From: Actinomycetota bacterium
GTDB taxonomy: Bacteria; Actinomycetota; Acidimicrobiia; Acidimicrobiales; VFJN01
Assembly (NCBI GenBank): GCA_049325515.1
Contig: JBMOLI010000006.1
Span: 29,328 to 93,327, forward strand
DNA: 64,000 nucleotides
Direction of reading: 5' to 3'
A program made the position numbers and the translations under genes. The notes under the pieces are model-generated. The model did not search any database. It worked only from the letters and a program-made list of their open reading frames with translations, and was not told the origin of the DNA. Of the stretch, positions 12,674 through 52,638 are shown piece by piece (the first letter of the stretch is position 1; the number at the start of each line of letters is the position of its first letter).

Positions 12674-12736
12674 CAACCAACGTCTGTGAACCCCCGCGTC
12701 CGCATGTCGGCCGCCCGGGTTCACAGACGTTGGTTG
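12674..12736. repeat. 63-bp palindromic extragenic element, family A copy 1
   Basis: CAACCAACGTCTGTGAAC-N27-GTTCACAGACGTTGGTTG, directly after a TAG stop. Confidence 0.95.
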
Positions 12737-12817
12737 GTGGACTGGTGGCTGGCGAGATGGGCGGCCAGACTGACGCCCACGCCAGACAGGACCAGAACCC
12801 ATCGAGGAGGGGCTCGC

Positions 12818-14017
12818 ATGCCCGAAGCCGTCATCGTCTCGACCGCCCGCACGCCGATCGGCCGGGCCAACAAGGGCAGCCTCACCGAGTGCCGGCCCGA
12901 TGACCTTGCGGGGTTCATCATCAAGGACGTCCTCGCCAAGACGCCGCAGCTCGACCCCCAGCAGGTCGAAGACGTGATCCTCGGGTGCGGCCAACCCGGT
13001 GGTGAGGCTGGCTACAACGTGGGTCGGGTGGCAGCGCTGCTCGCCGGCCTGCCCGATGTCCCGGGCGTCACCGTCAACCGCTACTGCTCGTCGTCGCTCC
13101 AGACGATCCGCATGGCCGCACACGCCATCAAGGCCGGCGAGGGCGATGTCTTCGTGGCCGCGGGGGTCGAGACGGTCAGCCGCTACATGCACGGCGCTTC
13201 GGACACCGGACCGCACAACCCGCTGTTCGCTGACGCTGAGGCCCGCACGAGCGAGCGCACGGGCGGCGCCGACAGCTGGGAGCCCCCGGCAGGGCTGCCC
13301 GACATCTACATCGCGATGGGCCAGACGGCCGAGAACGTCGTGCTGGCGGAGAACGTCTCGCGCGAGGAGATGGACGAGTGGGGTGCCCGCTCGCAGCAGC
13401 GTGCGGTGGCAGCGCAGGAGCGCGGCTTCTTCGAGCGCGAGATCACGCCTGTGACGCTGTCGGACGGCACCGTCGTGTCCAAGGACGACGGGCCTCGTGC
13501 CGGCACCACGGTCGAGAAGCTGGCCGAGCTGAAGCCGGTCTTCCGCCCAGACGGCAAGGTCACTGCCGGCAACGCATGCCCGCTGAACGATGGCGCCGCC
13601 GCTGTCGTCGTGATGAGCGACACCAAGGCGGCTGAGCTGGGCATCACGCCCCTCGCTCGCATCGTGTCGTCGGGTGTGACGGGCCTCAACCCGGAGATCA
13701 TGGGGATGGGCCCGGTCGAGGCATGCCGCATGGCGCTGAAGCGTGCCGGCCTCACGATCGACGACATCGACCTCGTGGAGATCAACGAGGCGTTCGCGGC
13801 GCAGGTCCTGCCGTCGATGAAGCACCTCGGCATCGACCCTGAGAAGCTCAACGTGAACGGTGGAGCCATCGCGCTGGGCCACCCCTTCGGCATGACCGGT
13901 GCGCGCATCATGACCACCTTGATCAACGGCCTTCAGGACTCCGGCGGTCGCTACGGCCTCGAGTCGATGTGCGTCGGTGGTGGCCAGGGCATGGCCATGG
14001 TGATCGAGCGCCTCTGA
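12818..14017 (+). CDS. Acetyl-CoA C-acyltransferase (thiolase)
   Basis: RBS GAGGAGG; NRYCSSS, NEAFA, GHPFGMTG, CVGGGQG. Confidence 0.95.
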   Translation: MPEAVIVSTARTPIGRANKGSLTECRPDDLAGFIIKDVLAKTPQLDPQQVEDVILGCGQPGGEAGYNVGRVAALLAGLPDVPGVTVNRYCSSSLQTIRMAAHAIKAGEGDVFVAAGVETVSRYMHGASDTGPHNPLFADAEARTSERTGGADSWEPPAGLPDIYIAMGQTAENVVLAENVSREEMDEWGARSQQRAVAAQERGFFEREITPVTLSDGTVVSKDDGPRAGTTVEKLAELKPVFRPDGKVTAGNACPLNDGAAAVVVMSDTKAAELGITPLARIVSSGVTGLNPEIMGMGPVEACRMALKRAGLTIDDIDLVEINEAFAAQVLPSMKHLGIDPEKLNVNGGAIALGHPFGMTGARIMTTLINGLQDSGGRYGLESMCVGGGQGMAMVIERL

Positions 14018-14042
14018 CATCGACGTGACGCCACCCAGTCGC

Positions 14043-16349
14043 TCAATCGGGCGGCTGGGTGGTCGTAGTCGTGGTGGTGGTCGTCGTCGACGACGACGAT
14101 GTCGTGGTCGGCTTCCCACCGCCTTTGCCTGTGGTGATGGTGGTCTGCAGCGGGCCGCTCGTCGTCGTCGGCCCGCGAACGACGATCGACGTCTCCGCGC
14201 CGTATCTCGACCCCGCCCCGCTGTCGCAGCGGGCGATGACGCGGTAGGAGCCGGGAGCCAGGTCCGCAGGGATCACCAGTGTGGCTGTCCGCTCATCTGC
14301 GGTGGAGCCGGTGTCGGGAGGGCTGGCCACCGGCGTGCCGTCCAGTACCACCCACCACGACGCACGGCAGAAGCTGAAACCCACACCGCGCACCGTGATG
14401 GTGGCGCCGGGGTCGACCTCGCTGGGCTCTGCTGTCAGCGTGGCCGGCTGGTCCTCCTCGAGGAGCTCGGCCGGCGGGGCCGGGAAGTCCACCGCCTCCC
14501 GATCACGGAGCGCCTCGGCCATGAACTTGGCCCATATCTGGGCCGGGAACGATCCGCCTGTCACGGCGCGACCCTGCACGTCATCCATCGGAGTGGAGGC
14601 CTCGGGGTGACCCATCCAGACCACCGCTGCGTAGCCAGGTACGTAGCCCGCGAACCAGGCGTCCACGTTGTCCTGGGTGGTGCCCGTCTTGCCGGCTGCG
14701 GGCCGGCCGATCTCGGCGCCGCGCCCTGTGCCGCTCTCGATGACACCGCGCAGGGCGTGGGTGACCGCCCTTGCCACGTCGGGCTCGATCGCCTCAGCCT
14801 CTGGCTCGCGTCGGTCTGGCTCCCAGATGACCCGCCCGTCGCCGTCCTCGATGCGCGCGATGGCATACGGCTCGAGCCTGGTGCCGTCATCCGCCAGCGT
14901 CAGGTAGGCGCTCGCCAGGTCGAGCGGTGACACCTCCTCCACGCCGAGCGCGATCGATGCGACCGGTTCGAGCTCGGCATCGATCCCCATGGCCTCGGCG
15001 GCAGCTGCGACAGCGTCGGGCCCGACCTTCTCCAGCAGCTGCGCGTAGACCGTGTTCACCGACCGGGCGGTCGCCTCGGCCAACGTGAGGTCGCCGTAGC
15101 CTTCGCCCCCGTAGTTGCTCACCTTCCAGGTCTCGCCGCCGAGCTCGAGCTCGATCCGGGGCGGGGCGGCGAACCGCTCACCCAGCTTGATGCCATCCTC
15201 TAGGGCGGCTTCGAGCACGAAGGGCTTGAAGGCCGAGCCCGGCTGGCGCCCAGAGCCCCCGCCGTCCTGCCCCCGAGCCAGGTCAACCTGGAGCTCCTCG
15301 AAGTCGCGCCCGCCGACGTGCGCCCTGATGGCCCCGTCCATGTCGAGCGCTACGAGTGCCGCTTGCGGGCCGGCAGGATCCGTGAGGACCTCGGCGACGG
15401 CCGCCTCGGCGGCCGCCTGGGCGTCGAGGTCGAGCGTCGTCACGACGCGCAGGCCCTTGCCGTAGACGGCGTCCTCGCCCACCGCATGGATCGTCTGCTC
15501 GCGGATCCACTCGACGAAGTGCGGCGCCAGGCCAGCCGTCAGGGTGATGGGTCGAGTGCGCGGGGTGGCGACGATCGGCTTCGAGCGCGCTGCCTCGGCC
15601 TCGGCCTGGCTGATCTCGCCGACCTCGACGAGGTCGTCCAACACGGTCGAGCGGCGGCGCTCGGCCTCCTTCATGTCCTCAGCTGGGTCCGCCGCCTCGG
15701 GCGACTTCAGCAGGCCGACCAGCAGCGCCGCCTGGCCCAGGTCGAGATCCTTGGCGCTCGAGTCGAAGTACGAGCGCGCGGCGGCCTCGATGCCGTAGGC
15801 GCCCCTTCCGAAGTACACCGTGTTGAGGTAGCGCTCGAGGATCTCGTCCTTGTCGGCGGTGCGCTCGAGCTTCACGGACAGCACGGCCTCGCGAGCCTTG
15901 CGCCACAGCGACCGCTCACCGTTGAGGTACTCGTTCTTGACGAGCTGCTGCGTCAGCGTCGAGCCGCCTTGCACGTCATCGCTCGTCAGATTGACCCAGA
16001 GCGCCCGCGAGACGCCGACAGGGTCGACGCCGTCATGGTCGAAGAAGCGGCGATCCTCGGCGGCTATCAGCGCGTCGACCACGACCGGTGCGACCTCGTC
16101 CAGCGACACCTCGAAGCGCTGCCCGTCCTGAGACAGGACGGCCAGCTCGCGGCCCTTGGCGTCGACCACCAGGGCTGAGCGGATCTTCGGTGGGTCCGCG
16201 GGGAGCTCGACCGCCTGCCACAGCACCGCCAGCCCCGCGACTCCGAGGGCACCGAGACCTCCAAGGGCAAGAGCCGGCCATCGGACCCAACGCGGCAGCC
16301 CGCGCCAGCGATGGCGCGCGCGCCTCAACAGCTCCGATGGACGTGCCAC
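14043..16349 (-). CDS. Class A penicillin-binding protein (transglycosylase/transpeptidase) with C-terminal Ig-like domain and Thr-rich tail
   Basis: EDRRFFDHDG, GGSTLTQQLVKN, KDEILERYLN; SAFK, SVN and KTG motifs. Confidence 0.95.
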   Translation of the reverse strand: MARPSELLRRARHRWRGLPRWVRWPALALGGLGALGVAGLAVLWQAVELPADPPKIRSALVVDAKGRELAVLSQDGQRFEVSLDEVAPVVVDALIAAEDRRFFDHDGVDPVGVSRALWVNLTSDDVQGGSTLTQQLVKNEYLNGERSLWRKAREAVLSVKLERTADKDEILERYLNTVYFGRGAYGIEAAARSYFDSSAKDLDLGQAALLVGLLKSPEAADPAEDMKEAERRRSTVLDDLVEVGEISQAEAEAARSKPIVATPRTRPITLTAGLAPHFVEWIREQTIHAVGEDAVYGKGLRVVTTLDLDAQAAAEAAVAEVLTDPAGPQAALVALDMDGAIRAHVGGRDFEELQVDLARGQDGGGSGRQPGSAFKPFVLEAALEDGIKLGERFAAPPRIELELGGETWKVSNYGGEGYGDLTLAEATARSVNTVYAQLLEKVGPDAVAAAAEAMGIDAELEPVASIALGVEEVSPLDLASAYLTLADDGTRLEPYAIARIEDGDGRVIWEPDRREPEAEAIEPDVARAVTHALRGVIESGTGRGAEIGRPAAGKTGTTQDNVDAWFAGYVPGYAAVVWMGHPEASTPMDDVQGRAVTGGSFPAQIWAKFMAEALRDREAVDFPAPPAELLEEDQPATLTAEPSEVDPGATITVRGVGFSFCRASWWVVLDGTPVASPPDTGSTADERTATLVIPADLAPGSYRVIARCDSGAGSRYGAETSIVVRGPTTTSGPLQTTITTGKGGGKPTTTSSSSTTTTTTTTTTQPPD

Positions 16350-16482
16350 GCTTCGTGACCTACCCAGGAACAGCGGCTGACAGACTCTCGGCGCGGGTTG
16401 AAGCGCGGCCCTAGCGGCGCTTGCCGCGTGTCGGACAGTGGTGGTGACGCCGGGGTGGGTGGTGCAGGCTACCCGGGCCTGC

Positions 16483-17397
16483 TCAGGCGGTGCCGTAGAC
16501 GGGAGCCGGCGCGGGAGCGTCAGCGAGCAGGCGGTCGATGACCGGGCCGAGCTCGTCTGCGTCCCAACGGTCGCCCTTGTCAGCAGTGGGGCCGTGCTGC
16601 CACCCCGTGGCGAGCCCCACCTTGCCGCCCTCGACCTCGAACACGCGGCCGCTCACGTGCGCCGAGGCGCTCGACGCGAGCCAGGCGACCAGCGGCGACA
16701 CGTTCTCCGGCGCCATCGCGTCGAAGGCGTCGGGCTCGTCGGGCGTCGCCATCATCTCGGTGAAGACGCCCTCGGTCATGCGGGTGCGAGCGGCGGGGCA
16801 GAGCGCGTTGGCGGTCACCCCGTAGCGGCCCAGCTCGACAGCTTGGACGAGGGTGAGCGTGGCGATGCCTGCCTTGGCAGCCGAGTAGGCGGCTTGCCCG
16901 ACCGAGCCGAGGATGCCGGCGCCCGAGCTCGTGTTGATGATTCGAGCGTCAACTGGCTGACCCGCCTTCGCAAGATCGCGCCAGTGGGCCGCGGCATGCC
17001 TGGCTACCGCGAAGTGACCCTTGAGGTGCACGCGCACCACCGCGTCCCACTCATCTTCGGCGATGTTGGCGAACATGCGGTCGCGCACGAACCCAGCGTT
17101 GTTGACCACGACGTCTAGACCGCCCAGCTCGTCGAGCGCCGCCCGCACCATGCGTGCGGCTCCATCGAAGTCGGCCACGTCGTCACCGTTGGCGATGGCC
17201 TCACCTCCGGCGGCTCGGATCTCGGCCACCACCTCGCCGGCCGGACCGCTGCCACCACCGGTGCCGTCGAGCTCGCAGCCCAGATCGTTGACGACGACGC
17301 GCGCTCCCTGGCGAGCCAGCTCGAGCGCGTGTGCGCGACCGAGCCCGCGGCCCGCGCCTGTGACGAGCACCCTTCGTCCCTCGCAGATGCGACCCAT
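16483..17397 (-). CDS. SDR oxidoreductase, Rv3548c-like (HIP/steroid catabolism)
   Basis: TGAGRGLG, YSAAK; VRDRMFAN, FDAMAPENVSPLV and C-terminal PVYG closely resemble Rv3548c; start taken at ATG 17397. Confidence 0.88.
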   Translation of the reverse strand: MGRICEGRRVLVTGAGRGLGRAHALELARQGARVVVNDLGCELDGTGGGSGPAGEVVAEIRAAGGEAIANGDDVADFDGAARMVRAALDELGGLDVVVNNAGFVRDRMFANIAEDEWDAVVRVHLKGHFAVARHAAAHWRDLAKAGQPVDARIINTSSGAGILGSVGQAAYSAAKAGIATLTLVQAVELGRYGVTANALCPAARTRMTEGVFTEMMATPDEPDAFDAMAPENVSPLVAWLASSASAHVSGRVFEVEGGKVGLATGWQHGPTADKGDRWDADELGPVIDRLLADAPAPAPVYGTA

Positions 17398-17416
17398 GGC
17401 GGGCAGTCTGTCAGGA

Positions 17417-17433
17417 TCTGACGGCTCGTCAGA
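17417..17433. promoter_or_regulatory. Palindromic operator candidate TCTGACGGCTCGTCAGA
   Basis: CTGAC-N5-GTCAG, 20 bp upstream of the SDR start; same motif at 25913, 35251 and 38831. Confidence 0.75.
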
Positions 17434-17439
17434 CACCAC

Positions 17440-17495
17440 CAACCAACGTCTGTGAACCCCCATGGCCGGCATGCGGACGTACGGGTTCACAGACG
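17440..17495. repeat. Family A palindromic element copy 2 (right arm shortened)
   Basis: CAACCAACGTCTGTGAAC-N27-GTTCACAGACG. Confidence 0.93.
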
Positions 17496-17507
17496 CCAGG
17501 AGCGACC

Positions 17508-18368
17508 GTGCGATACGGGATCACGATGTTCGCAACCGACCTCAGCTGCGATGTGGTCGAGCTGGCGCGCGAAGCCGAGGCGCGCGGCCTGGAGTCGCTT
17601 TGGCTGCCGGAGCACACGCACATACCGGTGAGCCGGCGCACCCCTCCGCCCACGGGGGACGCGGAGCTGGCCGAGGAGTACAGGCGCTGCCTCGACCCGC
17701 TCGTGGCGCTGGCCGCCGCGGCTTCGGTGACGACGAGCCTGCGACTCGGCACGGGCATCCTGCTGGCGGCGCAGCGTGACCCGATCGTCACCGCCAAGGC
17801 CGTCGCGACGCTCGATCACCTGAGCGGAGGGCGGGCCGCCCTCGGGGTGGGCTTCGGGTGGAACGAGGACGAGATCGCGCAGCACGGCGTTGCGATGGCC
17901 GACCGGCGTGACGTGGCGCGCGAGCACCTGCTCGCCATGCAGGCGCTGTGGGCCGAGGACGAAGCGTCGTTCGTCGGGCGCCACGTCCAGCTCGCCCCGT
18001 CCTGGTCCTGGCCGAAGCCCACCCAGCGCTCGGTGGACGGTCGCCCTGCTGTTCCCGTGCTGCACGGCGGGGCGGCCGGGCCCAAGCTCTTCTCCCACAT
18101 CGCCGAGTACGGCGACGGCTGGATCCCGATCGGCGGGGCCGGGCTGACTGATGCGATACCCAGGTTGCGTGAGGTCGTGGCGGAGGCGGGCCGCGACCCC
18201 TCGACCCTCGAGATCATCCCGTTCGGGTCGCTGCCCGACCCAGGCAAGCTCGACCACTTCGACCAGATCGGGGTGACCGAGTGCGTCTTCCGCCTGCCGA
18301 GCGCACCTCGCGACGTCGTGCTGCCGCTGCTGGACGAGCAGGCCGCGCTGGTGGCGTCGCGCCGCTGA
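17508..18368 (+). CDS. LLM-class, probably F420-dependent oxidoreductase
   Basis: WLPEHTHIP, DPLVALAAAA, ATLDHLSGGR, GFGWN, PKP. Confidence 0.9.
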   Translation: MRYGITMFATDLSCDVVELAREAEARGLESLWLPEHTHIPVSRRTPPPTGDAELAEEYRRCLDPLVALAAAASVTTSLRLGTGILLAAQRDPIVTAKAVATLDHLSGGRAALGVGFGWNEDEIAQHGVAMADRRDVAREHLLAMQALWAEDEASFVGRHVQLAPSWSWPKPTQRSVDGRPAVPVLHGGAAGPKLFSHIAEYGDGWIPIGGAGLTDAIPRLREVVAEAGRDPSTLEIIPFGSLPDPGKLDHFDQIGVTECVFRLPSAPRDVVLPLLDEQAALVASRR

Positions 18369-18381
18369 GGACGAGCGCAAC

Positions 18382-18444
18382 CAACCAACGTCTGTGAACC
18401 GCCACGGCCGCCATGCGGACGCAGGTGTTCACAGACGTTGTTTG
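18382..18444. repeat. Family A palindromic element copy 3
   Basis: CAACCAACGTCTGTGAAC-N27-GTTCACAGACGTTGTTTG between convergent genes. Confidence 0.95.
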
Positions 18445-18455
18445 GTGGGGCGCCT

Positions 18456-19427
18456 CTAGGGCACCAGCACGACCTTGCCGGCGATCTTGCGCGACTGCAG
18501 GTCGGTGAGCACGCTGACGACGTCGTCCAGCGGGTGCTCGGTCGGTTCCACCGGGGAGATCTCGCTCGAGCCGGCCAGGCTCACAAGCTCGGCCATCAGC
18601 TCCTGGTTGCCAGCGGGATCTCTCATGGTCCATGCGCCCCAGTCGATGCCCACCACCGTGCGGTTGCTCAGCAGGATCTGGTTGGCCGGGAGCGCCGGGA
18701 TCCCTCCGCCCGCGAAGCCGATCACGATGAAGCGACCCATCCAACCGAGCGCTCGCAGTGCCGGCTCGGCGAAGCGGTCACCGACGGGATCGACTACCAC
18801 GTCCACACCGCCGCCTGCGATCTCGCGGGCTCGGGTCTTCAGATCCTCTGTCTCATAGCTGATGGTGGCTTCGGCGCCCGCCGCGACCGCAGCCGCCAGC
18901 TTGTCGTCTGACGACGCCGCGGCGATGACGCGCGCGCCGAGGTGGCGTGCGAGGTCGACCGCCGCCAGGCCGATTCCGCCCCCCGCGCCGAGCACGAGCA
19001 CCCACTCGCCGGCACGGACCTGCGTGCGGCGGGTCATGGCGAAGAGCATGGTTCCGTAGCTCTGCACCAGTGCCGCGGCCTGCCCGTAGCTCAACGTGCC
19101 GGGAATGGGGATCACCGCGCTGGCTGCCAGCTCCACGTGCGACGCGAAGCCCCCGAGCCAGGGCATGGCCAGCACCCGATCGCCGACCGCGAGGCTCGTG
19201 ACGCCGTCGCCGACCGCGACGACGTCGCCGGCCACCTCTCCGCCCGGCGTGAACGGCAGGGGCGGCTTGATCTGGTACTTGCCCTGCACGAACAGCCCGT
19301 CGACGAAGTTCACGCCGGCGGCCTTGACCGCAACGACGACGCGACCCGGTCCGGGCTCTGGGTCAGGCCTCTCTTCGATCACGAGGCGGTCGATGGGGGC
19401 GAACTCGTGGCAGACGACAGCGCGCAT
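18456..19427 (-). CDS. NADPH:quinone oxidoreductase (MDR family)
   Basis: GVNFVD, PFTPGGEVAG, LGAGGGIG, GKVVL. Confidence 0.92.
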   Translation of the reverse strand: MRAVVCHEFAPIDRLVIEERPDPEPGPGRVVVAVKAAGVNFVDGLFVQGKYQIKPPLPFTPGGEVAGDVVAVGDGVTSLAVGDRVLAMPWLGGFASHVELAASAVIPIPGTLSYGQAAALVQSYGTMLFAMTRRTQVRAGEWVLVLGAGGGIGLAAVDLARHLGARVIAAASSDDKLAAAVAAGAEATISYETEDLKTRAREIAGGGVDVVVDPVGDRFAEPALRALGWMGRFIVIGFAGGGIPALPANQILLSNRTVVGIDWGAWTMRDPAGNQELMAELVSLAGSSEISPVEPTEHPLDDVVSVLTDLQSRKIAGKVVLVP

Positions 19428-19464
19428 CCCGGGAGCATGGCACGCCTGCGCGAGGCTGCGTGTC

Positions 19465-20277
19465 GTGCCCATCGTCCGCGTCGAAGACCTCGATGATCCG
19501 CGTCTGGCGGACTACGCGCACCTGCGGGCACCGTCGCGGCGCATGGCGCTCGAGCGCGAGCGCGGCATCTTCACGGTGGAGGGTCGGCTGTCGATCGAGG
19601 CGCTGCTCGAATCGCCGTACGAGGTGCGGTCGTTGTTCGTTGCCGAGGAGCACGTCGCTCGCGTTGCCTCGCTCGTGCACACCGAGGCTCCGATCTTCAC
19701 GATGTCAGCCGCTCAGATGGCGGAGGTCACGGGCGTGCACTTCCACCGCGGAGTGCTGGCCGTGGCCGAGCGGCCACAGCTCCCGCCGGTGGCCGACCTC
19801 CTGCGTGACGCGAAGGTGGTCGTCGTGCTCGAGGCGGTCAACGACCACGAGAACATCGGGGCGCTGTTCCGCAACGCAGCCGCCTTTGGAGTCGACGCCG
19901 TCGTGCTGGATCCCACCGCCACGGATCCGCTCTACAGGCGCTCGACACGAGTGTCACTCGGACACGTGCTGCGCGTTCCGTTCGCACGGGTCGACGAAGG
20001 CGAGTGGCCCGCGGCTCTCGGCGGAATGCGCGACCAAGGCTTCACGACGGTGGCGCTCACCCCATCACACGACGCCGAGACGCTGGGAGCGCTGCTCGCA
20101 GATCGTCCGGACCGGGTGGCCCTCGTTCTTGGAGCGGAGGGCCCCGGGCTCAGCACGGCGGCCCTCGATGCGACCGACCGCCGGGTGCGGATCCCCATGG
20201 CGCCCGGCGTCGACTCCGTCAACGTCGCGACTGCCGCAGCGATCGTCCTCTCTGCCCTTTACAACCAACATCTGTGA
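19465..20277 (+). CDS. TrmH/SpoU family RNA methyltransferase
   Basis: ENIGALFRNAAAFG, LGAEGPGL, IPMAPGVDSVNVA; stop TGA lies inside family A copy 4. Confidence 0.92.
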   Translation: MPIVRVEDLDDPRLADYAHLRAPSRRMALERERGIFTVEGRLSIEALLESPYEVRSLFVAEEHVARVASLVHTEAPIFTMSAAQMAEVTGVHFHRGVLAVAERPQLPPVADLLRDAKVVVVLEAVNDHENIGALFRNAAAFGVDAVVLDPTATDPLYRRSTRVSLGHVLRVPFARVDEGEWPAALGGMRDQGFTTVALTPSHDAETLGALLADRPDRVALVLGAEGPGLSTAALDATDRRVRIPMAPGVDSVNVATAAAIVLSALYNQHL

Positions 20278-20324
20278 ACCCCCATGGCCGCATACCGGCC
20301 AACCGAGTTCACAGACCTTGGTTG
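20262..20324. repeat. Family A palindromic element copy 4; overlaps the 3' ends of both convergent genes
   Basis: CAACCAACATCTGTGAAC-N27-GTTCACAGACCTTGGTTG. Confidence 0.93.
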
Positions 20325-21547: not shown

Positions 21548-21569
21548 CCTGCGGCTCAGTGCGCTGGCG

Positions 21570-23488: not shown

Positions 23489-23552
23489 CGCCAGAAGGCT
23501 ACGTAGGGAGCGCGCCCGGCATCCGGTTGGATGTGTGACCTGTGGCGGCCCG

Positions 23553-23999
23553 TCAGGCGCGGCCGGTGACGTCGACGACCCAGGAGAGGTCGGCGTCATC
23601 GAGGCGCTTGTGCCAGGCGGCGGGCGCCGCGCCCATCAGCGTCTGGAAGTCCCAGTAGTCCTTCCAGAGCACGATCACCCCGTCGACGATCCTCTGCACG
23701 GACACGAATGGCAGGGCGACGGTCTCGCCCGACTCCCAGGTCCACACCTCGGTGTGCTCCGTGACGACCACGCCGTCGGGCCCGTCGGCCACGACGCCGG
23801 GGATGTGCTCGTAGCCGGTTAGCCCTTCGAGGCCGAGTCGCAAGCGGGCTTCGATGCTGTCGGGACCGACGCCGGCAGAAGACGGTCCGGTGGGAACGTC
23901 GTAGTAGATCGACTCGGGCCCGAAGAACGATCGGATGCGGGGCCAGTCACGGTCGTAGAGCGCCGCCCAGAACGCCGCGGCAGTCTCGAGCGGCGTCAC
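23553..23999 (-). CDS. Limonene-1,2-epoxide hydrolase-like (NTF2/SnoaL fold) protein
   Basis: YYDVP...GPDSI...TEHTE...LPFVSV...WKDYWD. Confidence 0.8.
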   Translation of the reverse strand: MTPLETAAAFWAALYDRDWPRIRSFFGPESIYYDVPTGPSSAGVGPDSIEARLRLGLEGLTGYEHIPGVVADGPDGVVVTEHTEVWTWESGETVALPFVSVQRIVDGVIVLWKDYWDFQTLMGAAPAAWHKRLDDADLSWVVDVTGRA

Positions 24000-25936: not shown

Positions 25937-25999
25937 CCCTGTCGTTCTCGGGCGATCTCTCCGTTGCCCAGGCGGAATCTTCGCCCGAGAACGACAGGG
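25937..25999. repeat. Palindromic element family B copy 1
   Basis: CCCTGTCGTTCTCGGGCGA-N25-TCGCCCGAGAACGACAGGG; related copy at 53903. Confidence 0.85.
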
Positions 26000-27237: not shown

Positions 27238-27471
27238 CTATGCCCGCGGATCGCTAAGCACCCGACGGACCCAGACGGCCACTGCCCAAGCCGAGAACGC
27301 GGCTCCGGCCACCGCGAGGTAGTCACTGGCGCTCTCGGACAGCCGCCTGTTCCCACCGAGCTCGAACTCGTAGTCGGTCAGCAGAACGACGACGAAGAAG
27401 ACGGCCGCGGCAAGCCAGAGAAGGGTGAACCCGACCGCCTTCCGTCGGGCGGGTTCACCTGACGGTGGCAT
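27238..27471 (-). CDS. Small two-TM membrane protein
   Basis: Two hydrophobic helices; purine-rich RBS GGAGGATGAGG. Confidence 0.55.
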   Translation of the reverse strand: MPPSGEPARRKAVGFTLLWLAAAVFFVVVLLTDYEFELGGNRRLSESASDYLAVAGAAFSAWAVAVWVRRVLSDPRA

Positions 27472-27531
27472 GCCTCATCCTCCCCCGCGGACACCCGCGA
27501 TGTGTCGTGTTCGGCAGGAAGGGGCCCACGC

Positions 27532-28403: not shown

Positions 28404-28499
28404 CGAGGCAATGAGTCCCACTTGGCCCAGTCGGAGGCGATAGGTCCCACATGTGGGACTGATGACCTCGAGAGTGCAGTCGTGGGACCTATTGCCTCG
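28404..28499. repeat. 96-bp composite palindrome, family C copy 1 (four 18-bp units, two direct and two inverted)
   Basis: CGAGGCAATGAGTCCCAC-N11-GGAGGCGATAGGTCCCAC-AT-GTGGGACTGATGACCTCG-N11-GTGGGACCTATTGCCTCG. Confidence 0.88.
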
Positions 28500-34137: not shown

Positions 34138-34192
34138 CAACCAGCGTCTGTGAACCCCTACGTCCGCATGGCGGCCGTGGCGGTTCACAGAC
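34138..34192. repeat. Family A palindromic element copy 5; contains the ipdC stop codon
   Basis: CAACCAGCGTCTGTGAAC-N27-GTTCACAGAC. Confidence 0.92.
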
Positions 34193-35258
34193 CGAGGCCC
34201 TTCAGAGCAGCAGCGGCTTCGCTCTCGATGCGAGAAAGGAGGTCGGCCACCGTCGGCAGGTCGTCGACCACTCCCGTCACCTGACCGGTGGGCAGGATCC
34301 CGACCTCGGGCTTGCCGTCGACCATCGTCGCCTTGATGAGCATCGGAGCGTTGGCGGCGAGGGCGACCTGGCTCCAAGTGAGATCTTGGTTGCGCTTCAT
34401 GGCGAGGCCCTCACGCAGCAGATCGGCGAGCGACGTGCCGGTCTCCCTGCGGAAGCGCAGCGCAGCGGCGGCCGCGCGGGGGAAGCGAAGGAGCTTCGGT
34501 GAGCGCTCGATGCGCTCGACGACATCAGTGCGGATGACGCGCTGAGGCGCGCCGTCGATCGCGGTGGTGACGACCGTGTCGAAGACGGTCGCCGCCGTGT
34601 AGCGATCCTTCACTCGGTCGGGCACCCGGCTCTCGGCCGTGAGGAGGAAGCGGGTGCCCATCGCGATGCCGTCGGCCCCATAGGCGAGAGCAGCGACGAG
34701 ACCTCGGCCGTCGTGGAAGCCGCCGGCGCCCAGCACCGGGATCGTGGCGCCCACGGCGTCCACGACCTGTGGCAGCAGCAGAGAGGTGGGCACCGAGCCG
34801 GTGTGGCCACCGCCCTCCGCTCCCTGCGCGATCACGGCGTCGACGCCCATGTCGAGCACCTTCTCGGCGTGCCTGCGCGCCCCCACGGTCGGCATCACCA
34901 CCACCCCAGCGTCGTGGCAGCGGGCCACCGCGGCTGCGGTGGGCGCCCCCGCGAAGGACACGAGTCGCACGCCTTCCGATACGACGAATGCCACGAGCTC
35001 GTCGAGGCCTGGTTGATCCGCACGGAAGTTGACGCCAAAGGGCGCATCGGTGCGTTCGCGCACCGACCGGACTGCGCCCCGCAGCTGCTCGGGTGTCATG
35101 GTCACAGCGGCGAGGATCCCGAAGCCGCCGGCAGCGCTCGTCGCCGCCGTCAGGCTGGCGCCCGACACCCATCCCATCCCGGTCTGCACGATGGGCAGCC
35201 GGCACCCCACCAGATCGCAGAACCTCGTCTGGAGCACGGGGTGGACAGAACCTGACAC
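34185..35258 (-). CDS. ipdC: Nitronate-monooxygenase-family enoyl-CoA reductase, IpdC-like
   Basis: PIVQTGMGWV, GAEGGGHTG, MGTRFLLT, TWSQV...ANAPML; resembles Rv3553. Confidence 0.85.
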   Translation of the reverse strand: MSGSVHPVLQTRFCDLVGCRLPIVQTGMGWVSGASLTAATSAAGGFGILAAVTMTPEQLRGAVRSVRERTDAPFGVNFRADQPGLDELVAFVVSEGVRLVSFAGAPTAAAVARCHDAGVVVMPTVGARRHAEKVLDMGVDAVIAQGAEGGGHTGSVPTSLLLPQVVDAVGATIPVLGAGGFHDGRGLVAALAYGADGIAMGTRFLLTAESRVPDRVKDRYTAATVFDTVVTTAIDGAPQRVIRTDVVERIERSPKLLRFPRAAAAALRFRRETGTSLADLLREGLAMKRNQDLTWSQVALAANAPMLIKATMVDGKPEVGILPTGQVTGVVDDLPTVADLLSRIESEAAAALKGLGL

Positions 35259-46490: not shown

Positions 46491-46494
46491 CCAA

Positions 46495-46556
46495 CAACCA
46501 ACGTCTGTGAACCCCGGCGGCCGCATGGCGGACGCGGCGGTTCACAGACGTGGTGG
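46495..46556. repeat. Family A palindromic element copy 6
   Basis: CAACCAACGTCTGTGAAC-N27-GTTCACAGACGTGGTGG. Confidence 0.93.
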
Positions 46557-46565
46557 ACTTGGGCC

Positions 46566-46949: not shown

Positions 46950-46957
46950 CCCACCAA

Positions 46958-47012
46958 CAACCAACGTCTGTGAACCCTGACGGCCGCATGGCGGACATGG
47001 GGGTTCACAGAC
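46958..47012. repeat. Family A palindromic element copy 7
   Basis: CAACCAACGTCTGTGAAC-N27-GTTCACAGAC. Confidence 0.93.
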
Positions 47013-47230
47013 CGCTGTCCAGCAACTCGACCTGCCCGCCCGCGGGTCGTGTCCGCTGCGGCTTCGCTCGTTGGCTCTGTGGAGTCCCGAGGGTGGACGA
47101 AATCGGAAAAATCAGATATTAATCCCAGAGCCCTTTGGAGGGTGTTGGGCGGTTCAGGCCGGTTGAGGTGTAGCGCAAGCGCGCATCTGCGCCTTCGCAT
47201 CGTCGCCGTCCGCCGCAAGGAGGACGGGTC

Positions 47231-50200
47231 ATGCAGAGCGTCGGGCGGTCCGGGAGCGTTGTGCAGAGGAGTTCACGCACCCGCCGGAGGCTCGGCCGCC
47301 GGCTCGCGGTCGTGGCCGCCGGGACGTCGACCCTCCTCCTGACACCGCTGGCCCTCGAGACGTCTCCGGTTCGTGCAGCGCCGACATCAGCCACGCTCGA
47401 GCAGTGTGCGAACGGATCAGCGCAGGCGCCGAACGAACCCGCCTGCGACCCCGAATCGTGGGTCTCCGGGAACCTCGGCGCCAGCAAGTCCCACTACCTC
47501 GAGGGCGACTCGATCCCTTATCGGATGCGGTTCGGCGGATTGGCCCCCGGAAGCACTCACGCGGTCGACATCGAGTGGGACACCACCAAGGCCGGCAAGC
47601 ACGCCCTCGACTACCTGACGACCTTCGACCGCACCGTGACCACCGCCAACCCGTGCGCGCTGTCGGCGTCGAAGTCGGTCCCGGGATGCAGCCCCGGGTC
47701 CTACTCGAGCTACGCGATTCCGTCCGACCCTCAGGTGGCAAGTGCCGGTGTCTCACAGGTCCCCGGCGAGTTCCGCCTCTATGGGGGCACGATCACTGCG
47801 ATTGGCGCCGTGCGGCCGGGCGCAGGGCCCTACTCCTATGACGAGCCCGGGTTCGAGGGCGACCGCAGCGCGTCCATTCGTGTCACCTTCACCGCCGGCT
47901 CAGCCGAGCCGGTGCTGGCATGGGGCGGCCACATCGCGGCGCGCGCCGATTGGGGCTCGTTGGAGTCGGCTGTAGCTATCAATGGCTCGCCATACCACAT
48001 GCGCTTGCTGGGCCTTGACGGATCCGGCGGCAACCAGGACCGGTCTCTCAGCGCAGAGGCGGTCATCTTCCCCAGCTCGCTGAAGGTCATCAAGGACGCT
48101 GCCCCCGACCACTCGCAGGACTTCGCGTTCACCGCTTCCGATCTCTCACCAACCAGCTTCAGCCTGGACGACGACTCGGACGCGACCTTGAGCAACGAGC
48201 AGATCTTCAGCGACATCACCTCCTTCGGGACGAAGTCGGTGACAGAGGGAGCCGTCAACGGGTGGGCTCTCAGCTCGATCAGCTGCACCTTCACGGGGGA
48301 CGGCTCCGACGGGTCATCTTCGAACCTCACCACGCGCACGCTGTCGATCGAGATGGAGGAGGGTCAGGACTACGTCTGCACCTTCACCAACACGCGACAG
48401 ACGGGTTTGCTGCGCGTGATCAAGCAGTCATCACCGGCGTCGCCATCACAGTTCTCGCTGCACGTGACGCAGGGTGGCAGCGATGTGGCGGGAAGCCCGG
48501 AGCCTGGCTCGGCGTCGGGAACGGACTACACCCTTCCCGTCGGCACCTACCTGGTCTCTGAGTCCGGCGGTCCTGCCGGGTACACAGCCGACTTCAGCGG
48601 TTGCGGCGACACGGGCTCCGTCTTGGTTCTCGACGGACAGACCACCACATGCACGATCGTCAACCGCCCGGCGGCGCTGGGGCTGGTGGTCGCCAAGTCG
48701 GCGAGTCCCACGGCGATCGCAGAGCCCGGGGGCACGATCACCTTCACCGTCGACGTGACGAACAGCTCCGCGGTCGCGGTGACCATCGTGTCTCTCGTCG
48801 ACGATCCCTACGGTCCGCTCTCCGGAGATGCGGACTGCCAGGTGGGCACCGCGCTGGAGGCTGGCGCATCGTGCTCGTTCGACTTCACGGCCACCGTCAC
48901 GGGCAACGCCGGCACTGAGCACACCGACACCGTCACGGTCGTGGCGAAGGACGCCGAAGATCGTGAGACCACGGGCTCCGCCTCCGCCACGGTGACGATC
49001 ACCGACGAGCCACCGTCGATAGACGTGGCCAAGTCCGCTGACGTCGTCTCGGTCTCCGAGAACGCCGGAGGTCAGGCGACCTACACGGTTCGGGTGTCGA
49101 ACTCGTCGATCGAGAGCGTCACGATCACGGCCATTGCCGACGATCCGTTCGGTGCACAGGCCGGTGGTGAGGACTGTCAGGTGGGCACGGTGTTGGCGGC
49201 GGGGGCGTCGTGTGAGTTCAGCTACACGGGCGCGGTGCCGGCGGGTGATGCGAGTGGTGAGCCGTTCGTGAACACGGTGTCTGTCACGGCTCAGGACAAC
49301 GACGGCAACGAGGCCGGCGACGACGGTTCGGCCATCGTCGACTACACCGATGATCTGCCCAGCCTGGCGGTCGACAAGTCGGCCGCTCCCGACTCGGTGC
49401 CGGAGAACACCGGCGGGTCGGTCACCTACACGGTGAGGGTGTCGAACCTGTCGGGTGAGTCGGTGGCGGTCAGCTCGATCGCGGATGATCGCTTCCCTCA
49501 TGCGGTGGGTGATGAGGACTGTCAGGTGGGCACGGTGTTGGCGGCGGGGGCGTCGTGTGAGTTCAGCTACACGGGCGCGGTGCCGCCGGGTGATGCGAGT
49601 GGTGAGCCGTTCGTGAACACGGTGTCTGTCACGGCTCAGGACAACGACGGCAACGAGGCCGGCGACGACGGTTCGGCCATCGTCGACTACACCGATGATC
49701 TGCCCAGCCTGGCGGTCGACAAGTCGGCCGCTCCCGACTCGGTGCCGGAGAACACCGGCGGGTCGGTCACCTACACGGTGAGGGTGTCGAACCTGTCGGG
49801 TGAGTCGGTGGCGGTCAGCTCGATCGCGGATGATCGCTTCCCTCATGCGGTGGGTGATGAGGACTGTCAGGTGGGCACGGTGTTGGCGGCGGGGGCGTCG
49901 TGTGAGTTCAGCTACACGGGCGCGGTGCCGCCGGGTGACGCGAGTGGTGAGCCGTTCGTGAACACGGTGACTGTGACGGCTCAGGACAACGACGGCAACG
50001 AGGCCGGCGACGACGGCAGCGCCAGCGTCGACTATGACGACGATCTGCCCAGCCTGGCGGTCGACAAGTCGGCCGCTCCCGACTCGGTGCCCGAGAACAC
50101 GGGTGGGTCGGTGACCTACACGGTGACGGTGACGAACCTGTCGGGTGAGTCGGTGACCGTCACCTCGATCGCGGACGATCCGTTCGGTGCACAGGCCGGT

Positions 50201-51940
50201 GACGAGGACTGTCAGGTGGGCACCGTGCTGGCGGCCGGGGCCTCGTGCGAGTTCAGCTACACGGGTACCGTCACGGCCGGGTCGTTCGGTGCCGCGCACG
50301 TGAACACGGTGACTGTCACCGCCGAGGACAACGACGGCAACGAGACCGGCGACGACGGTTCGGCCATCGTCGAGTACAGCCCGGTGGCCAACCTGGTCGT
50401 GTCGAAGGTGGCATGTCCCAGTCCCGTGGCCCCTGGTGGCGAGCTCACCTACACGATCACGGCCAGCAACGATGGCAATGCCGCTTCGGCGCAAGACACC
50501 ACGCTGGTGGACACTCTGCCGAGCGGCACCTCGCTACTCGATGCGGATGACGGCGCCGTGGGTGAGAGCAACGGTCTCGTCACGATCTCGTGGAGCCTCG
50601 GGCCCATCGATGTCGACGAGTCGGTGACCCGCACCGTGGTCGTGCTCGTGACAGCGCCCAGCGGGACGACCCTTCAGAACTCAGTGACGTTGACGGCGTC
50701 GTCAGTGGCTCCCGCTACGGCAACCACGGACACGCTCGTGTCCGACGCCGGCGCAGCCACTCGAGGGTCGGCGTTCGGCGCCGATCTCCAGGTGCTGGGC
50801 GTTCCCCTCGTCGACCGCTACGGGAACGTCAGCTCTGAGGCACCTTCCTCCCCGGACGGCGACGCCAGCGAGCTGGCGGGCGCGAACCAGCCCGGCCTGT
50901 CGGCGGGCCTCTTGCGTCAGAGCACGGCCTCGACAGTCGACACGACGGCGCAGAGCACCGCGTCATCGACGGTTGCCGGGGTGAGCGTCCTCGACGGTCT
51001 TATCACCGCCGATGTCGTGAAGGGCGTCTCGCAGTCGATCGCAGGGCCGATGTCGGCATCCCACAACGTGGTCGGGTCGACCTTCACCAACCTGAAGGTC
51101 AACGGTGCCGCCGTGACCAACGTCAACCCCAACACGACGGTCAACCTGAAGGTGGTCGGTCTGACGGTCGCCCGAGCTGTCCTCCTCGAACAGACGGGCA
51201 ACGTGTCGGCCACCGACCTCCATTCGGCGGAGGGCGCGGTGAACATGATCCACGTCACGATGCTGGCCCCCTTCGCCGGCCTGCCCGCCGGTGCGGAGAT
51301 CATCGTGGCTCACGCAGACAGCGAGGCCACCTACCCGTCAGGCACGGCGTGCGGACGCGAGCTGGGCTTCGTGACTGGTGAGGCGTTCTCCGTGTTCGCT
51401 CATGGAGCTGTGGGTGGCCAGCCCATCGATCTGGTGAAGCAGGGCGACGCCGTGCTGCCAGCGCTGGGCGGCTCGGACAGCGACGAGGTCAACGAGCTGA
51501 CGCTCGACGGCGTCGTGAGCGCGACCTCCGCACGCAACAGCACGTCCGGGGCCATTTCGACCAGCCCGAACAGCACCAGTCGATCCCAGATCTTCGGTCT
51601 TGATCTGCTCGACGGCCTGATCACTGCTGATGTGCTCGACGTCATGTCGACGAGCTCCACGTCTGGCGCGCCGACGACAGCGCTCGCGTCGACCTTCACC
51701 GGCCTGCGCGTGGGTGGCGTGCCGATCGTGGTGCCTGTCGCGCCCAACACCACGATCCAGATCCCGCAATCGGACGGAAGCGTGCTGCTCGTCGTTCTGA
51801 ACGAGCAGGTGACGACCAGCTCCACGTCGCACACCGAGGGGACCGTCAACGCCGTCCACATCTATGTGCTGAAGGGCGGAGAGATGACAGCAGAGGTGGT
51901 CGTCGCCTCCGCTCACAGCGGTGCACATCTCGGTTTCTGA
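47231..51940 (+). CDS. Large secreted/surface protein: prealbumin-like domains, DUF11-like Ig repeats, two C-terminal choice-of-anchor-P-like domains
   Basis: Arg-rich signal peptide; CTFTN domains; repeated LAVDKS..VTYTV.VSN..CQVGTVLAAGASCEF..NTV units; paired GLITADV..STFT.L.V.G..PNTT..IHV..A domains. Confidence 0.85.
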   Translation: MQSVGRSGSVVQRSSRTRRRLGRRLAVVAAGTSTLLLTPLALETSPVRAAPTSATLEQCANGSAQAPNEPACDPESWVSGNLGASKSHYLEGDSIPYRMRFGGLAPGSTHAVDIEWDTTKAGKHALDYLTTFDRTVTTANPCALSASKSVPGCSPGSYSSYAIPSDPQVASAGVSQVPGEFRLYGGTITAIGAVRPGAGPYSYDEPGFEGDRSASIRVTFTAGSAEPVLAWGGHIAARADWGSLESAVAINGSPYHMRLLGLDGSGGNQDRSLSAEAVIFPSSLKVIKDAAPDHSQDFAFTASDLSPTSFSLDDDSDATLSNEQIFSDITSFGTKSVTEGAVNGWALSSISCTFTGDGSDGSSSNLTTRTLSIEMEEGQDYVCTFTNTRQTGLLRVIKQSSPASPSQFSLHVTQGGSDVAGSPEPGSASGTDYTLPVGTYLVSESGGPAGYTADFSGCGDTGSVLVLDGQTTTCTIVNRPAALGLVVAKSASPTAIAEPGGTITFTVDVTNSSAVAVTIVSLVDDPYGPLSGDADCQVGTALEAGASCSFDFTATVTGNAGTEHTDTVTVVAKDAEDRETTGSASATVTITDEPPSIDVAKSADVVSVSENAGGQATYTVRVSNSSIESVTITAIADDPFGAQAGGEDCQVGTVLAAGASCEFSYTGAVPAGDASGEPFVNTVSVTAQDNDGNEAGDDGSAIVDYTDDLPSLAVDKSAAPDSVPENTGGSVTYTVRVSNLSGESVAVSSIADDRFPHAVGDEDCQVGTVLAAGASCEFSYTGAVPPGDASGEPFVNTVSVTAQDNDGNEAGDDGSAIVDYTDDLPSLAVDKSAAPDSVPENTGGSVTYTVRVSNLSGESVAVSSIADDRFPHAVGDEDCQVGTVLAAGASCEFSYTGAVPPGDASGEPFVNTVTVTAQDNDGNEAGDDGSASVDYDDDLPSLAVDKSAAPDSVPENTGGSVTYTVTVTNLSGESVTVTSIADDPFGAQAGDEDCQVGTVLAAGASCEFSYTGTVTAGSFGAAHVNTVTVTAEDNDGNETGDDGSAIVEYSPVANLVVSKVACPSPVAPGGELTYTITASNDGNAASAQDTTLVDTLPSGTSLLDADDGAVGESNGLVTISWSLGPIDVDESVTRTVVVLVTAPSGTTLQNSVTLTASSVAPATATTDTLVSDAGAATRGSAFGADLQVLGVPLVDRYGNVSSEAPSSPDGDASELAGANQPGLSAGLLRQSTASTVDTTAQSTASSTVAGVSVLDGLITADVVKGVSQSIAGPMSASHNVVGSTFTNLKVNGAAVTNVNPNTTVNLKVVGLTVARAVLLEQTGNVSATDLHSAEGAVNMIHVTMLAPFAGLPAGAEIIVAHADSEATYPSGTACGRELGFVTGEAFSVFAHGAVGGQPIDLVKQGDAVLPALGGSDSDEVNELTLDGVVSATSARNSTSGAISTSPNSTSRSQIFGLDLLDGLITADVLDVMSTSSTSGAPTTALASTFTGLRVGGVPIVVPVAPNTTIQIPQSDGSVLLVVLNEQVTTSSTSHTEGTVNAVHIYVLKGGEMTAEVVVASAHSGAHLGF
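49169..50264 (+). repeat. Intragenic 345-bp (115-aa) tandem repeat
   Basis: GAGGACTGTCAGGTGGGCAC starts at 49169, 49514, 49859 and 50204; the first two periods appear to differ by one base. Confidence 0.95.
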
Positions 51941-51995
51941 ACGTGGTGTCGGCGCCGTCGTCACCAAGGAGATGGGATCTGGCCGGCTGGGCCGG

Positions 51996-52547
51996 TCACC
52001 GTGGACCGCATGACCACCGTGCAGTGCCATGCAGCTCATCGCCCGTTGGGGCTCGCAGCCCCTCGAAGACCAGCTCGCCGCTCCCGTCGGCGGACAGTTC
52101 CAGGCTCGCGGTGGTGCCGCTGACCGCTGCGTAGTCCATGGCCGGCGCTTCGGGATCGGCGATGACGGTCACCTTGAACGTTGTCAGGTCTGTGAGGTCG
52201 TAGGTATCCGCGCCGCGCAACGCCGCAACGGCCGCCTGCCATTGGAGGCGAAGCGGATCGAGGCGTCCGGGGAGCGGGATCACGTAGCTCGCCGCGGAGA
52301 CCAGGTCTTCGCACGCGGTGAGGGTCGAGCTGTATTGGATCTCGTAGACCCCGGAGCTGCTCACTGCGCCCGTCAAGGTCGCGGTGCCCTTCGCTGCCAA
52401 TGGTCCGCCCACTGACGTGGGGGAGGTGGTGGCGAGAGCTGTGGTCGTCGGATCAGCCTCACCTGTGGCGGGCTCATCGTTGCCGCTGCAGGCGGCGCAC
52501 CCCATCAAGACGGCGCCGATGATCAGAGATCGCCAGATCCTCCCCAT
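51996..52547 (-). CDS. Putative lipoprotein
   Basis: MGRIWRSLIIGAVLMGCAACSG signal/lipobox; Thr-rich linker. Confidence 0.65.
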   Translation of the reverse strand: MGRIWRSLIIGAVLMGCAACSGNDEPATGEADPTTTALATTSPTSVGGPLAAKGTATLTGAVSSSGVYEIQYSSTLTACEDLVSAASYVIPLPGRLDPLRLQWQAAVAALRGADTYDLTDLTTFKVTVIADPEAPAMDYAAVSGTTASLELSADGSGELVFEGLRAPTGDELHGTARWSCGPR

Positions 52548-52575
52548 TGGGCGGGAGCATACGACTGGCAAGGAA

Positions 52576-52638
52576 CAACCAACGTCTGTGAACCCTGGCG
52601 GCCGCATGGCGGACGTGGCGGTTCACAGACGTTGGTTG
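52576..52638. repeat. Family A palindromic element copy 8
   Basis: CAACCAACGTCTGTGAAC-N27-GTTCACAGACGTTGGTTG, directly abutting the MaoC TAG. Confidence 0.95.

Follow-up and report, generated by a model that had tools for sequence, protein, structure and literature searches.

Repeats of the repetitive extragenic palindrome (REP) type are common in bacteria. Among them, only the GTAG-tagged class has, to our knowledge, a known enzyme, the REP-associated tyrosine transposase (RAYT); we know of none for large groups such as the CGTC-tagged REPs or the mycobacterial Tuberculosis Rho-independent terminator motif (TRIT). Here we describe a hairpin family, called family A, in a 64,000-nt stretch of DNA from an uncultured member of the Acidimicrobiia (the window; positions 29328-93327 of contig C6 in the source genome G000, a 3.9 Mb draft in 41 contigs with about 69% G+C and 99% completeness). 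A candidate partner gene, which encodes an AbiEi-like helix-turn-helix (HTH) part and a DUF559 nuclease domain, lies outside the window in the same genome. The element behaves like a REP or a REPIN (a REP doublet), yet fails the tests for a REP-RAYT pair, a miniature inverted-repeat transposable element (MITE), an attC site and a canonical terminator. We think it probable that family A and the AbiEi-HTH/DUF559 protein form a partnership like that of REPINs and RAYTs with an enzyme of a different class, in which the protein would bind, cleave and mobilise the hairpins.

REPs are stem-loops of 20-40 bp whose GTAG or CGTC tag is unpaired, whereas a family-A unit is one hairpin of 63-71 bp with an internal box, and no doublet of two REPs. 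As in family A, the palindromes of REP/REPIN-RAYT systems are short and extragenic, number about 100 copies and lie mostly downstream of genes. Their partner gene is single-copy, vertically inherited and itself flanked by repeats according to the accessible part of one survey (Di Nocera et al. 2013, PMC3733652), and different paralogues pair with different repeat families that persist for long periods, as far as the accessible literature goes. The enzymes differ, as the candidate partner here is a Vsr-like PD-(D/E)XK nuclease with an AbiEi-like HTH and not a Y1 HUH transposase. In the accessible text of the same survey, CGTC-tagged REPs are palindromes between unidirectional and convergent genes with 'no dedicated transposase'; they have stems of 8-9 bp, loops of 4-5 nt, a CCA tail and, at one end, a CGTC that is unpaired, and are found mainly in Alphaproteobacteria. 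The termini of GTAG-tagged REPs can supply stop codons to flanking genes (PMC3733652, in the part available). In family A, by contrast, both arms have their CGTC base-paired, in a stem of about 30 bp.

The closest behavioural analogue at gene ends is TRIT, which is likened to family A by behaviour and not by sequence. The available part of the original report describes about 147 palindromic, mostly bidirectional copies placed narrowly around position -8 of stop codons, and its authors proposed a factor that reads the double-stranded motif (PMC3152330). In the accessible text of a later account, TRIT is thought to be cut by RNase III rather than to terminate transcription (PMC13714241). TRIT shares with family A an actinobacterial lineage, its nature as a set of bidirectional palindromes (about 150), strong conservation of sequence and structure, and a location at or inside the stop codon; it differs in being reported, in the accessible texts, only from Mycobacterium and with no partner gene. 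Correia elements of Neisseria are 100-150 bp long, duplicate a TA target and carry promoter elements. Like family A they are interspersed inverted repeats at gene ends, and their transcripts form long hairpins cut by RNase III, as stated in the accessible text of PMC13714241; the target duplication is theirs, none being found at family-A boundaries. On the protein side, DUF559, Vsr and I-Bth0305I were grouped together in a survey of PD-(D/E)XK nucleases (PMC3424549, in the part available). The candidate partner gene differs from the genes of I-Bth0305I, Vsr and AbiEi in that it is located neither in an intron nor beside a cytosine methyltransferase gene, no AbiEii toxin is found at its locus, and its neighbours are aspS and rarA.

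All eight copies reported in an initial annotation of the window were present. Their spacer is 27 nt in 8/8 copies, and the core is a variable inner hairpin found in both orientations, as described there; the outer right arm is absent from four copies rather than the three that had been counted. An 18-nt arm matched the window 12 times at up to 3 mismatches, against 0.02 matches expected from shuffles. The copies, numbered from the first letter of the window, are as follows.

12674..12736, family-A copy with both outer arms intact, directly after the TAG stop of the upstream gene, in a tandem context
17440..17502, family-A copy in the intergenic region of a divergent gene pair; no outer right arm
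18382..18444, family-A copy between two convergent genes, within a palindrome of about 87 bp overall (18370-18456)
20262..20324, family-A copy that also separates convergent genes; a gene of the SpoU methylase family ends in the TGA of the arm (C-terminus ...YNQHL)
34138..34200, family-A copy without the outer right arm; the downstream minus-strand gene stops at the TGA of the arm
46495..46557, family-A copy without the outer right arm, 4 nt past a thiolase-like gene
46958..47020, family-A copy without the outer right arm, 8 nt past a glyoxalase-family gene
52576..52638, family-A copy with both outer arms perfect, followed directly by CTA (a minus-strand stop)

The copies at 46495 and 46958 bracket the glyoxalase-family gene, which encodes 127 aa. 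Predicted RNA folds of five copies had energies of -37 to -50 kcal/mol (z -3.6 to -9.6). The copy at 12674, which has an orthologous copy in the related genome G024, folded at -49.9 kcal/mol (z -9.6), and that at 52576 at -46.7 and -45.4 kcal/mol on the two strands.

Genome-wide, 100 pairs of the inner arms GTCTGTGAAC/GTTCACAGAC were counted with at most one mismatch allowed per arm, and the spacing was 27 nt in 99 of them and 28 nt in one. Six solo arms were also found, four at contig starts, one beside an N run and one degenerate; contigs C5, C18, C38 and C39 start inside a family-A copy. The total in G000 is about 100-105 copies and not the hundreds that had been projected from the window, where the density is about five times the genome average. 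Copy numbers in metagenome-assembled genomes (MAGs) are lower bounds because repeats break short-read assemblies. Contigs from four metagenome runs were short noisy pieces at the repeats, often stopping there, and gave no usable filled or empty joints. Perfect 9-mer inverted repeats 27 nt apart numbered 185 in G000, of which 91 were family A, and even spacings gave about 60-70.

The hairpin consists of an outer stem, a TCTGTG/CACAGA box, three co-varying pairs, a small internal loop, a GC-rich central stem and a 3-nt loop. The inner 47 bp form the conserved unit. Only about 55-60% of the copies have an intact outer arm, CAACCAAC/GTTGGTTG, and the palindrome often extends a few bases beyond it. 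The oriented core reads NNNN-R-Y-G-K-CCGCAT-R-S-CGG-M-C-R-Y-NNNN. The loop (CAT/ATG) and the entire core are each found in both orientations, which can differ even when orthologous copies of two species are compared; the ratio of core orientations in G000 is 56:43. Ninety-four distinct cores were found among 99 copies. No covariation was detected among paralogues inside the core in G000 (z <=0), because the loop and the whole core flip orientation independently and scramble the register.

Two covariance models were used across species. The first (R1), built from 27 copies and trained on the GAAC arm variant, had hits in 25/30 genomes of the genus, and its best hit per species kept (G/T/A)TCTGTG-NNN-N27-N'N'N'-CACAGA(C/A/T). 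R1 gave false zeros (0 matches in G008, which has 71 copies by pattern), and its counts were replaced by pattern counts and by those of a second, cross-species model (R2), which had matches in 28/30 genomes of the genus. Compensated changes between species were seen in the triplet and first base as well as in the outer arms and central stem. In 26 copies from 23 genomes, picked by a structure-aware model, 88% of the cells were paired against 70% in shuffles. A covariation test had been proposed in the initial annotation: 22 of the 27 pairs had changed on both sides, with 120 such cells against 39 +/- 5 after shuffling, and none of 500 shuffles reached any of the observed measures. Registers slid by 1-3 columns were 29-40% paired. 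One-sided (wobble) changes were rare, which fits a constraint on both strands. The TCTGTG/CACAGA box is nearly fixed across species and its halves are always 33 nt apart. Recognition by a protein had been suggested from the fixed geometry, and this geometry does go with a conserved box; the RAYT/HUH nuclease named as a possible reader fell away, as no PF01797 gene was found in G000, G024 or G009 by a search whose control was positive in 6/14 known genomes.

The architecture is not limited to the genus. TCTGTG-N33-CACAGA was found in at least 24 of 151 sampled genomes of the order, where up to 33 candidates per genome were scored with R2 under stricter filters; the hits in other families kept TTCTGTG-N33-CACAGAA and again abutted gene 3' ends. 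The exact-arm variant had 77 copies in G000, 80 in G024, 6 in G009 and one each in G018 and G022, and was not found in the other 56 of the 61 relatives searched. Family A is a local variant of an order-wide palindrome superfamily, and the lineage specificity that had been assigned to it holds only for the GAAC arm variant. In the window, no Rfam model matched at its gathering threshold (the best sub-threshold match was 22 bits to a miRNA model with a threshold of 80), and no family-A match was found in viral contigs, plasmids or phages. A match to a catalogued insertion sequence end or Rfam family, or confinement to the window without filled and empty sites, had been named as findings that would refute the first interpretation; neither kind of match was obtained, and the family extends beyond the window.

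A search for a DUF559-type nuclease gene flanked by the arms had also been proposed, and such a gene was found. Open reading frames (ORFs) flanking low-copy hairpin hits in other families of the order were scanned, and at 2/15 loci a gene with AbiEi_4 and DUF559/MTES_1575 domains was located beside the hairpin; in both, a second hairpin was present on the other side of the gene. G000 has three AbiEi_4/DUF559 genes, each adjoining members of a different palindrome family.

C1:493917/493938-494837, DUF559 gene between aspS and rarA, outside the window
C12:22571-23500, DUF559 gene with two copies of another palindrome on each side
C18:194870-195805, DUF559 gene with two copies of a second window family just upstream

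At the stop of the C1 gene there is a complete TCTGTG hairpin (56 bits), and the start of the gene is overlain by TTCTGTGGAC...GTCCACAGAC with a short spacer. At C12:22328-22450 and 23530-23650 there is a 45-bp palindrome, GCCTGCGAC...GTCGCAGGC, in tandem pairs, with about six copies in the genome. The second window family has arms CGTTCTCGGGCGA...TCGCCCGAGAACG and is about 63 bp long; it is found at 25937-25999 and 53903-53953 of the window and has about 17 full copies in the genome.

The C1 protein, of about 300 aa, contains AbiEi_4 at residues 2-47 and MTES_1575/DUF559 at residues 228-291. Pfam scores of 46.4 bits for MTES_1575 (cut-off 38.2) and 29.7 bits for DUF559 (cut-off 20.6) place it among the Vsr-like PD-(D/E)XK proteins. 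Residues D229, E240 and D256 are invariant in 21 sequences, and D242, H247, R257, Q260 and N261 are nearly so; the conserved acidic residues we take to be catalytic, as in the Vsr family. No solved structure was found among the sequence relatives of the protein. In an AlphaFold model (pLDDT 86) the N-terminal 195 or so residues resemble AbiEi (6y8q) and Rv2827c (1zel), and the C-terminal 100 or so resemble the I-Bth0305I core (3r3p; TM 0.74 on target), Vsr (1cw0) and NGO0050 (3hrl). A full-text literature search, covering sources outside subscription journals and supplements, found no link of DUF559 or MTES_1575 to palindromic repeats.

When the genus was searched with the C1 protein, full-length orthologues with 54-71% identity were found in 17 other genomes and fragments in three, and six further genomes had only paralogues of about 35% identity. 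In G027, G017 and G025 only the N-terminal 172 or so residues of the orthologue are present. The same two neighbour genes, aspS and rarA by translation, were found at all 21 other loci compared, and the C1 nuclease gene is single-copy and syntenic, and in our view vertically inherited. The nuclease part of the orthologue is retained in 19 species, and in 15 of these R2 hairpins flank the gene on both sides, or in 17/19 when G000 (one strong and one short hairpin) and G007 (an altered box on both sides) are included; G022 has one bracket, its other side being off the contig. The orthologue of G007 is the most divergent, and the altered box of its brackets is TCTGAR. No R2 hairpin was found at the three nuclease-truncated genes of G027, G017 and G025. 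The brackets of G024 are ordinary family-A copies with CAACCAAC/GTTGGTTG arms, and the bracketing hairpins belong to the dominant family of the genome in G024, G011, G020, G008 (71 copies) and G029 (64 copies).

Hairpin abundance was then set beside the state of the nuclease gene, with R2 matches counted on both strands and up to 150 per genome. The 18 genomes with an intact gene had at least 150, 130, at least 150, 111, 88, 134, 86, 86, 146, 108, 93, 58, 9, 52, 60, 28 (G004, an unpublished genome), 15 and 0 matches, so that 16/18 had from 15 to at least 150. Where the locus was assembled without the nuclease, the counts were 2, 2 and 2 for the truncated genes of G027, G017 and G025, 12 for G021 and 0 for G006. 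In G021 the nuclease gene is deleted with a relic arm left behind, and in G006 another gene is located between aspS and rarA.

Beyond the genus, five genomes, each representing a different other family of the order, have 28 DUF559 paralogues; 17 of 28 had an identical word of at least 14 nt in both flanks, against 20 of 1981 G000 genes of similar size (1%). The shared word is usually a whole palindrome and is different for each paralogue; the palindrome of one paralogue has 8 further dispersed copies. DUF559 genes are bracketed by TCTGTG-type hairpins in two other families of the order, and across the phylum the protein family was present in 62 of the 201 genomes sampled, frequently with 5-10 copies each. 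The palindromes that bracket DUF559 paralogues (at loci L203-L230, L249, L241 and L252, and families A and B of G000), although unrelated in other respects, often begin with (G)TTCTG, TTCTC or CTTTG, which may be a shared tag comparable to the GTAG and CGTC tags of REPs. At 28404-28498 of the window there are two adjacent palindromes with arms GAGGCNATNRGTCCCAC, for which G000 showed no partner gene; in a genome from a different family, a DUF559 paralogue (L222) is bracketed by a similar palindrome (GTTCTCGAGGCAATGAC...). We also considered the nuclease gene itself as a recently moving element, and rejected this; the paralogues of G305 and G373 are far diverged, and the orthologue in the genus is syntenic.

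Family A is concentrated at gene ends. According to gene calls in G000 made with a purpose-written codon-statistics caller (3558 genes), 35 copies are located between convergent, 48 between tandem and 10 between divergent genes, six inside predicted genes and one at a contig edge, so that 83/100 are between convergent or tandem genes. The intergenic background comprises 545 convergent, 2421 tandem and 551 divergent regions, and convergent pairs are enriched for family A (35/545, against 48/2421 for tandem and 10/551 for divergent pairs). Neighbouring gene 3' ends fell within -8 to +20 nt of the inner arm in 104 of 122 cases, and gene starts within the same distance in 24 of 77. The TGA inside the GTCTGTGAAC arm is the stop codon of 39 genes. 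Thirteen predicted proteins of G000 end in ...QRL read from a family-A arm, and others in ...QHL or ...RRL (for example, window 19465-20277); the element rewrites C-termini in this way, its arm supplying the last codons and the TGA to the frames that enter it. The genes of the window are ordinary metabolic and transport genes, and the nearest named records for a window protein belong to MAGs of uncultured Acidimicrobiia/Ilumatobacteraceae. Twenty-nine proteins are bracketed by two family-A copies in G000, and judged by eye from their sequences they look housekeeping-like, with none nuclease-like.

Such positions would be expected of an element that acts purely on RNA at transcript 3' ends, as a bidirectional terminator, an RNase III site or a stabiliser like TRIT, with the DUF559 gene merely having such hairpins. 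Hairpins tight against stop codons in both directions, the enrichment of convergent pairs, folds that are very stable on both strands, and the likeness to TRIT, whose palindromic copies are near position -8 of stops (PMC3152330, accessible part), agree with this explanation. We nevertheless consider it unlikely, as it leaves unexplained the hairpins at the 5' end of the nuclease gene that overlap its start, the separate palindrome family of each DUF559 paralogue (17/28 against 1%) and the loss of hairpins where the nuclease is lost. The features of an RNA element are also missing, with no U-tract, no orientation bias relative to transcription (18 against 30), no excess of G-U over C-A on the sense strand (77 against 63) and a tail arm that is not better kept. 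A canonical intrinsic terminator was rejected for the lack of a U-tract, its tail being GUUGGUUG/GTTGGTTG; the outer arm was rejected as a U-tract because the downstream arm is kept no better than the upstream one (23 against 27 of 47). An RNA-level role could coexist with the repeat-nuclease partnership as a secondary function for the host, and it is likely that the hairpins do serve the host at the 3' ends of transcripts as well.

Orthologous sites were compared between species, as the initial annotation had proposed, and differences between filled and empty sites were found. Of the 84 G024 copies, 15 were sampled; 10 of these shared their site with a family-A copy of G000, and an eleventh with a G000 copy whose arms are compensated. 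The inner arms of orthologous copies in G000 and G024 differ at 3/200 positions, with flanking genes 73-89% identical and cores that differ widely. Family-A copies are long-lived at orthologous sites. The 17440 copy of G000 has orthologous copies in G024, G009 and G026 (the last with compensated arms GTGGAC/GTCCAC), which makes four species with a filled site; in G029 the site is empty. To the left of this copy, at about 17405-17432, there is a small palindrome, CTGACG-N3-CGTCAG, kept in all five aligned species including the hairpin-less one; it may be an operator in the divergent promoter region. No copy is present at the 18382 site in G009 and G029, whose convergent stops are separated by 3 nt there. 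In G021 the flanks of the site align at a distance of 8 nt, the site itself not being aligned, and in G024 a hairpin with compensated arms, TCTGTGGGC-N27-GCCCACAGA, is present. The copy at 20262 is common to G024 and absent from G009, where the gene ends differently, the copy replacing the last codons found in G009.

Conventional mobile elements offer a further explanation for a short, abundant, terminally inverted repeat, namely a MITE that descends from a DDE insertion sequence, a classical REP mobilised by a RAYT, or a site like attC of integrons. The outer arm, AACCAAC/GTTGGTT, is one mismatch away from what we take to be the consensus of the attC R-box, which counts for the last of these. 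The arm also contains CGTC, the tag of one REP superfamily (PMC3733652, accessible part). Direct repeats of 2-8 bp at 16 symmetric boundaries were no more frequent than in re-paired controls, and no transposase was found among the window genes, both as first noted. A longer element with family-A ends was not found in the 41-contig draft: the solo arms bound none, and small contigs resembling insertion sequences have other ends. With no target duplication and no longer autonomous element, a MITE was rejected, and of the REP/REPIN- or MITE-like nature first assigned to family A only a REP/REPIN-like non-coding hairpin family remains. Nor is it a REP unit of the Di Nocera type, with its 63-71 bp and CGTC/GACG paired on both arms in place of a 20-40-bp stem-loop with an unpaired tag, and no PF01797 gene to move it. 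An attC site was likewise set aside, as the copies are scattered singly and in both orientations among housekeeping genes, no cassette arrays were seen (intI was not searched for), and none matched viral, plasmid or phage sequence. We regard this group of explanations as very improbable.

Several observations weigh against a partnership of family A with the AbiEi-HTH/DUF559 protein, to which the association of repeat and gene points. Few copies in G000 are identical, and there is no sign of very recent bursts. In G000 the brackets of the C1 gene are off-type (GGAC/GGAG and not GAAC), and one is shortened. In G003, where the orthologue is intact, no hairpins bracket it and R2 matches number only 9; the variant family of G007 has only 3 copies. 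G009, G012, G002 and G013 have many hairpins and no detected orthologue; the nuclease locus falls in an assembly gap in two of these relatives (G002 and G013), and the whole region is missing from the G009 and G012 MAGs, which are 81-82% complete. The species of the genus are not independent, so a single ancestral event could account for the brackets there, and perhaps three events lie behind the five genomes without the nuclease. The control genes for shared flank words came from G000 and not from the five tested genomes, and outside the order the sharing is weaker, in 6 of 23 best loci of published genomes in the phylum sample and in 1/9 and 4/9 paralogues of two multi-copy genomes. Comparison of filled with unfilled alleles, where possible, showed 12-37 nt of older sequence replaced by the element and no clean insertion. 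Finally, the palindrome of one paralogue exists only as the two copies that bracket it, with no dispersed copies.

This last case would suit a protein that is a regulator, a defence nuclease or a module like a toxin-antitoxin pair, with the palindromes as its operators or as chromosomal sites that it binds or cuts (in autoregulation, nucleoid organisation or the processing of RNA hairpins by a Vsr/RAP-like domain) and no mobilisation. The AbiEi antitoxin-like N-terminal half (6y8q; Pfam AbiEi_4) and the operator-like 5' bracket that overlaps the start codon in G000 point the same way, and Vsr-like domains acting on RNA have been published (PMC11879112, in the part available). A regulon would be odd, however, if it consisted of about 100 near-identical sites located at the 3' ends of metabolic genes with no relation to one another; the filled and empty sites and the replacement of gene ends mean that copies arise at new places, and covariation along the whole 63 bp calls for folding and not just for two half-sites. 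We give this alternative a low probability, and return to the partnership of repeat and nuclease below.

Two further features of the window are recorded here. At 27409-27474 there is an isolated imperfect palindrome with 29-nt arms, containing GGGTGAACCCG...CGGGTTCACC. At 6371-9538 there is a single ORF of 1056 aa with a major facilitator superfamily (MFS) transporter domain and two ATP-binding cassette (ABC) ATPase domains, an unusual fusion or a merged gene call.

In the partnership that we favour, the hairpins would be the non-autonomous half, and the protein half would be a Vsr-like PD-(D/E)XK nuclease with an AbiEi-like winged helix in the place of a Y1 HUH transposase. The HTH part would read the box in the folded or duplex element, the nuclease would nick the element, and repair or replication would then copy or homogenise the elements. 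Surviving copies would be found mostly at the 3' ends of genes, a position in which a strong hairpin that works in both directions may be tolerated or may be useful as a 3'-end structure of the transcript.

If the link to DUF559 holds, hairpin repeats would have a new enzyme class, and a protein of 300 aa and a DNA of 63 bp would make a tractable pair in which to study the spread and persistence of repeats and the 3' ends of mRNA. The box, at a fixed distance from the loop, would be a clean substrate for structural work. It is possible, and we propose it tentatively, that AbiEi-HTH/DUF559 proteins in general are a second, unrecognised class of domesticated repeat-keeping nucleases, RAYT-like but chemically unrelated, each paralogue of which may recognise and nick its own hairpin family for host repair or replication to copy and homogenise. 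Were this true, a widespread domain of unknown function would gain a role, and it could supply the enzyme for REP-like repeats that have no RAYT, such as the CGTC REPs and perhaps mycobacterial TRIT.

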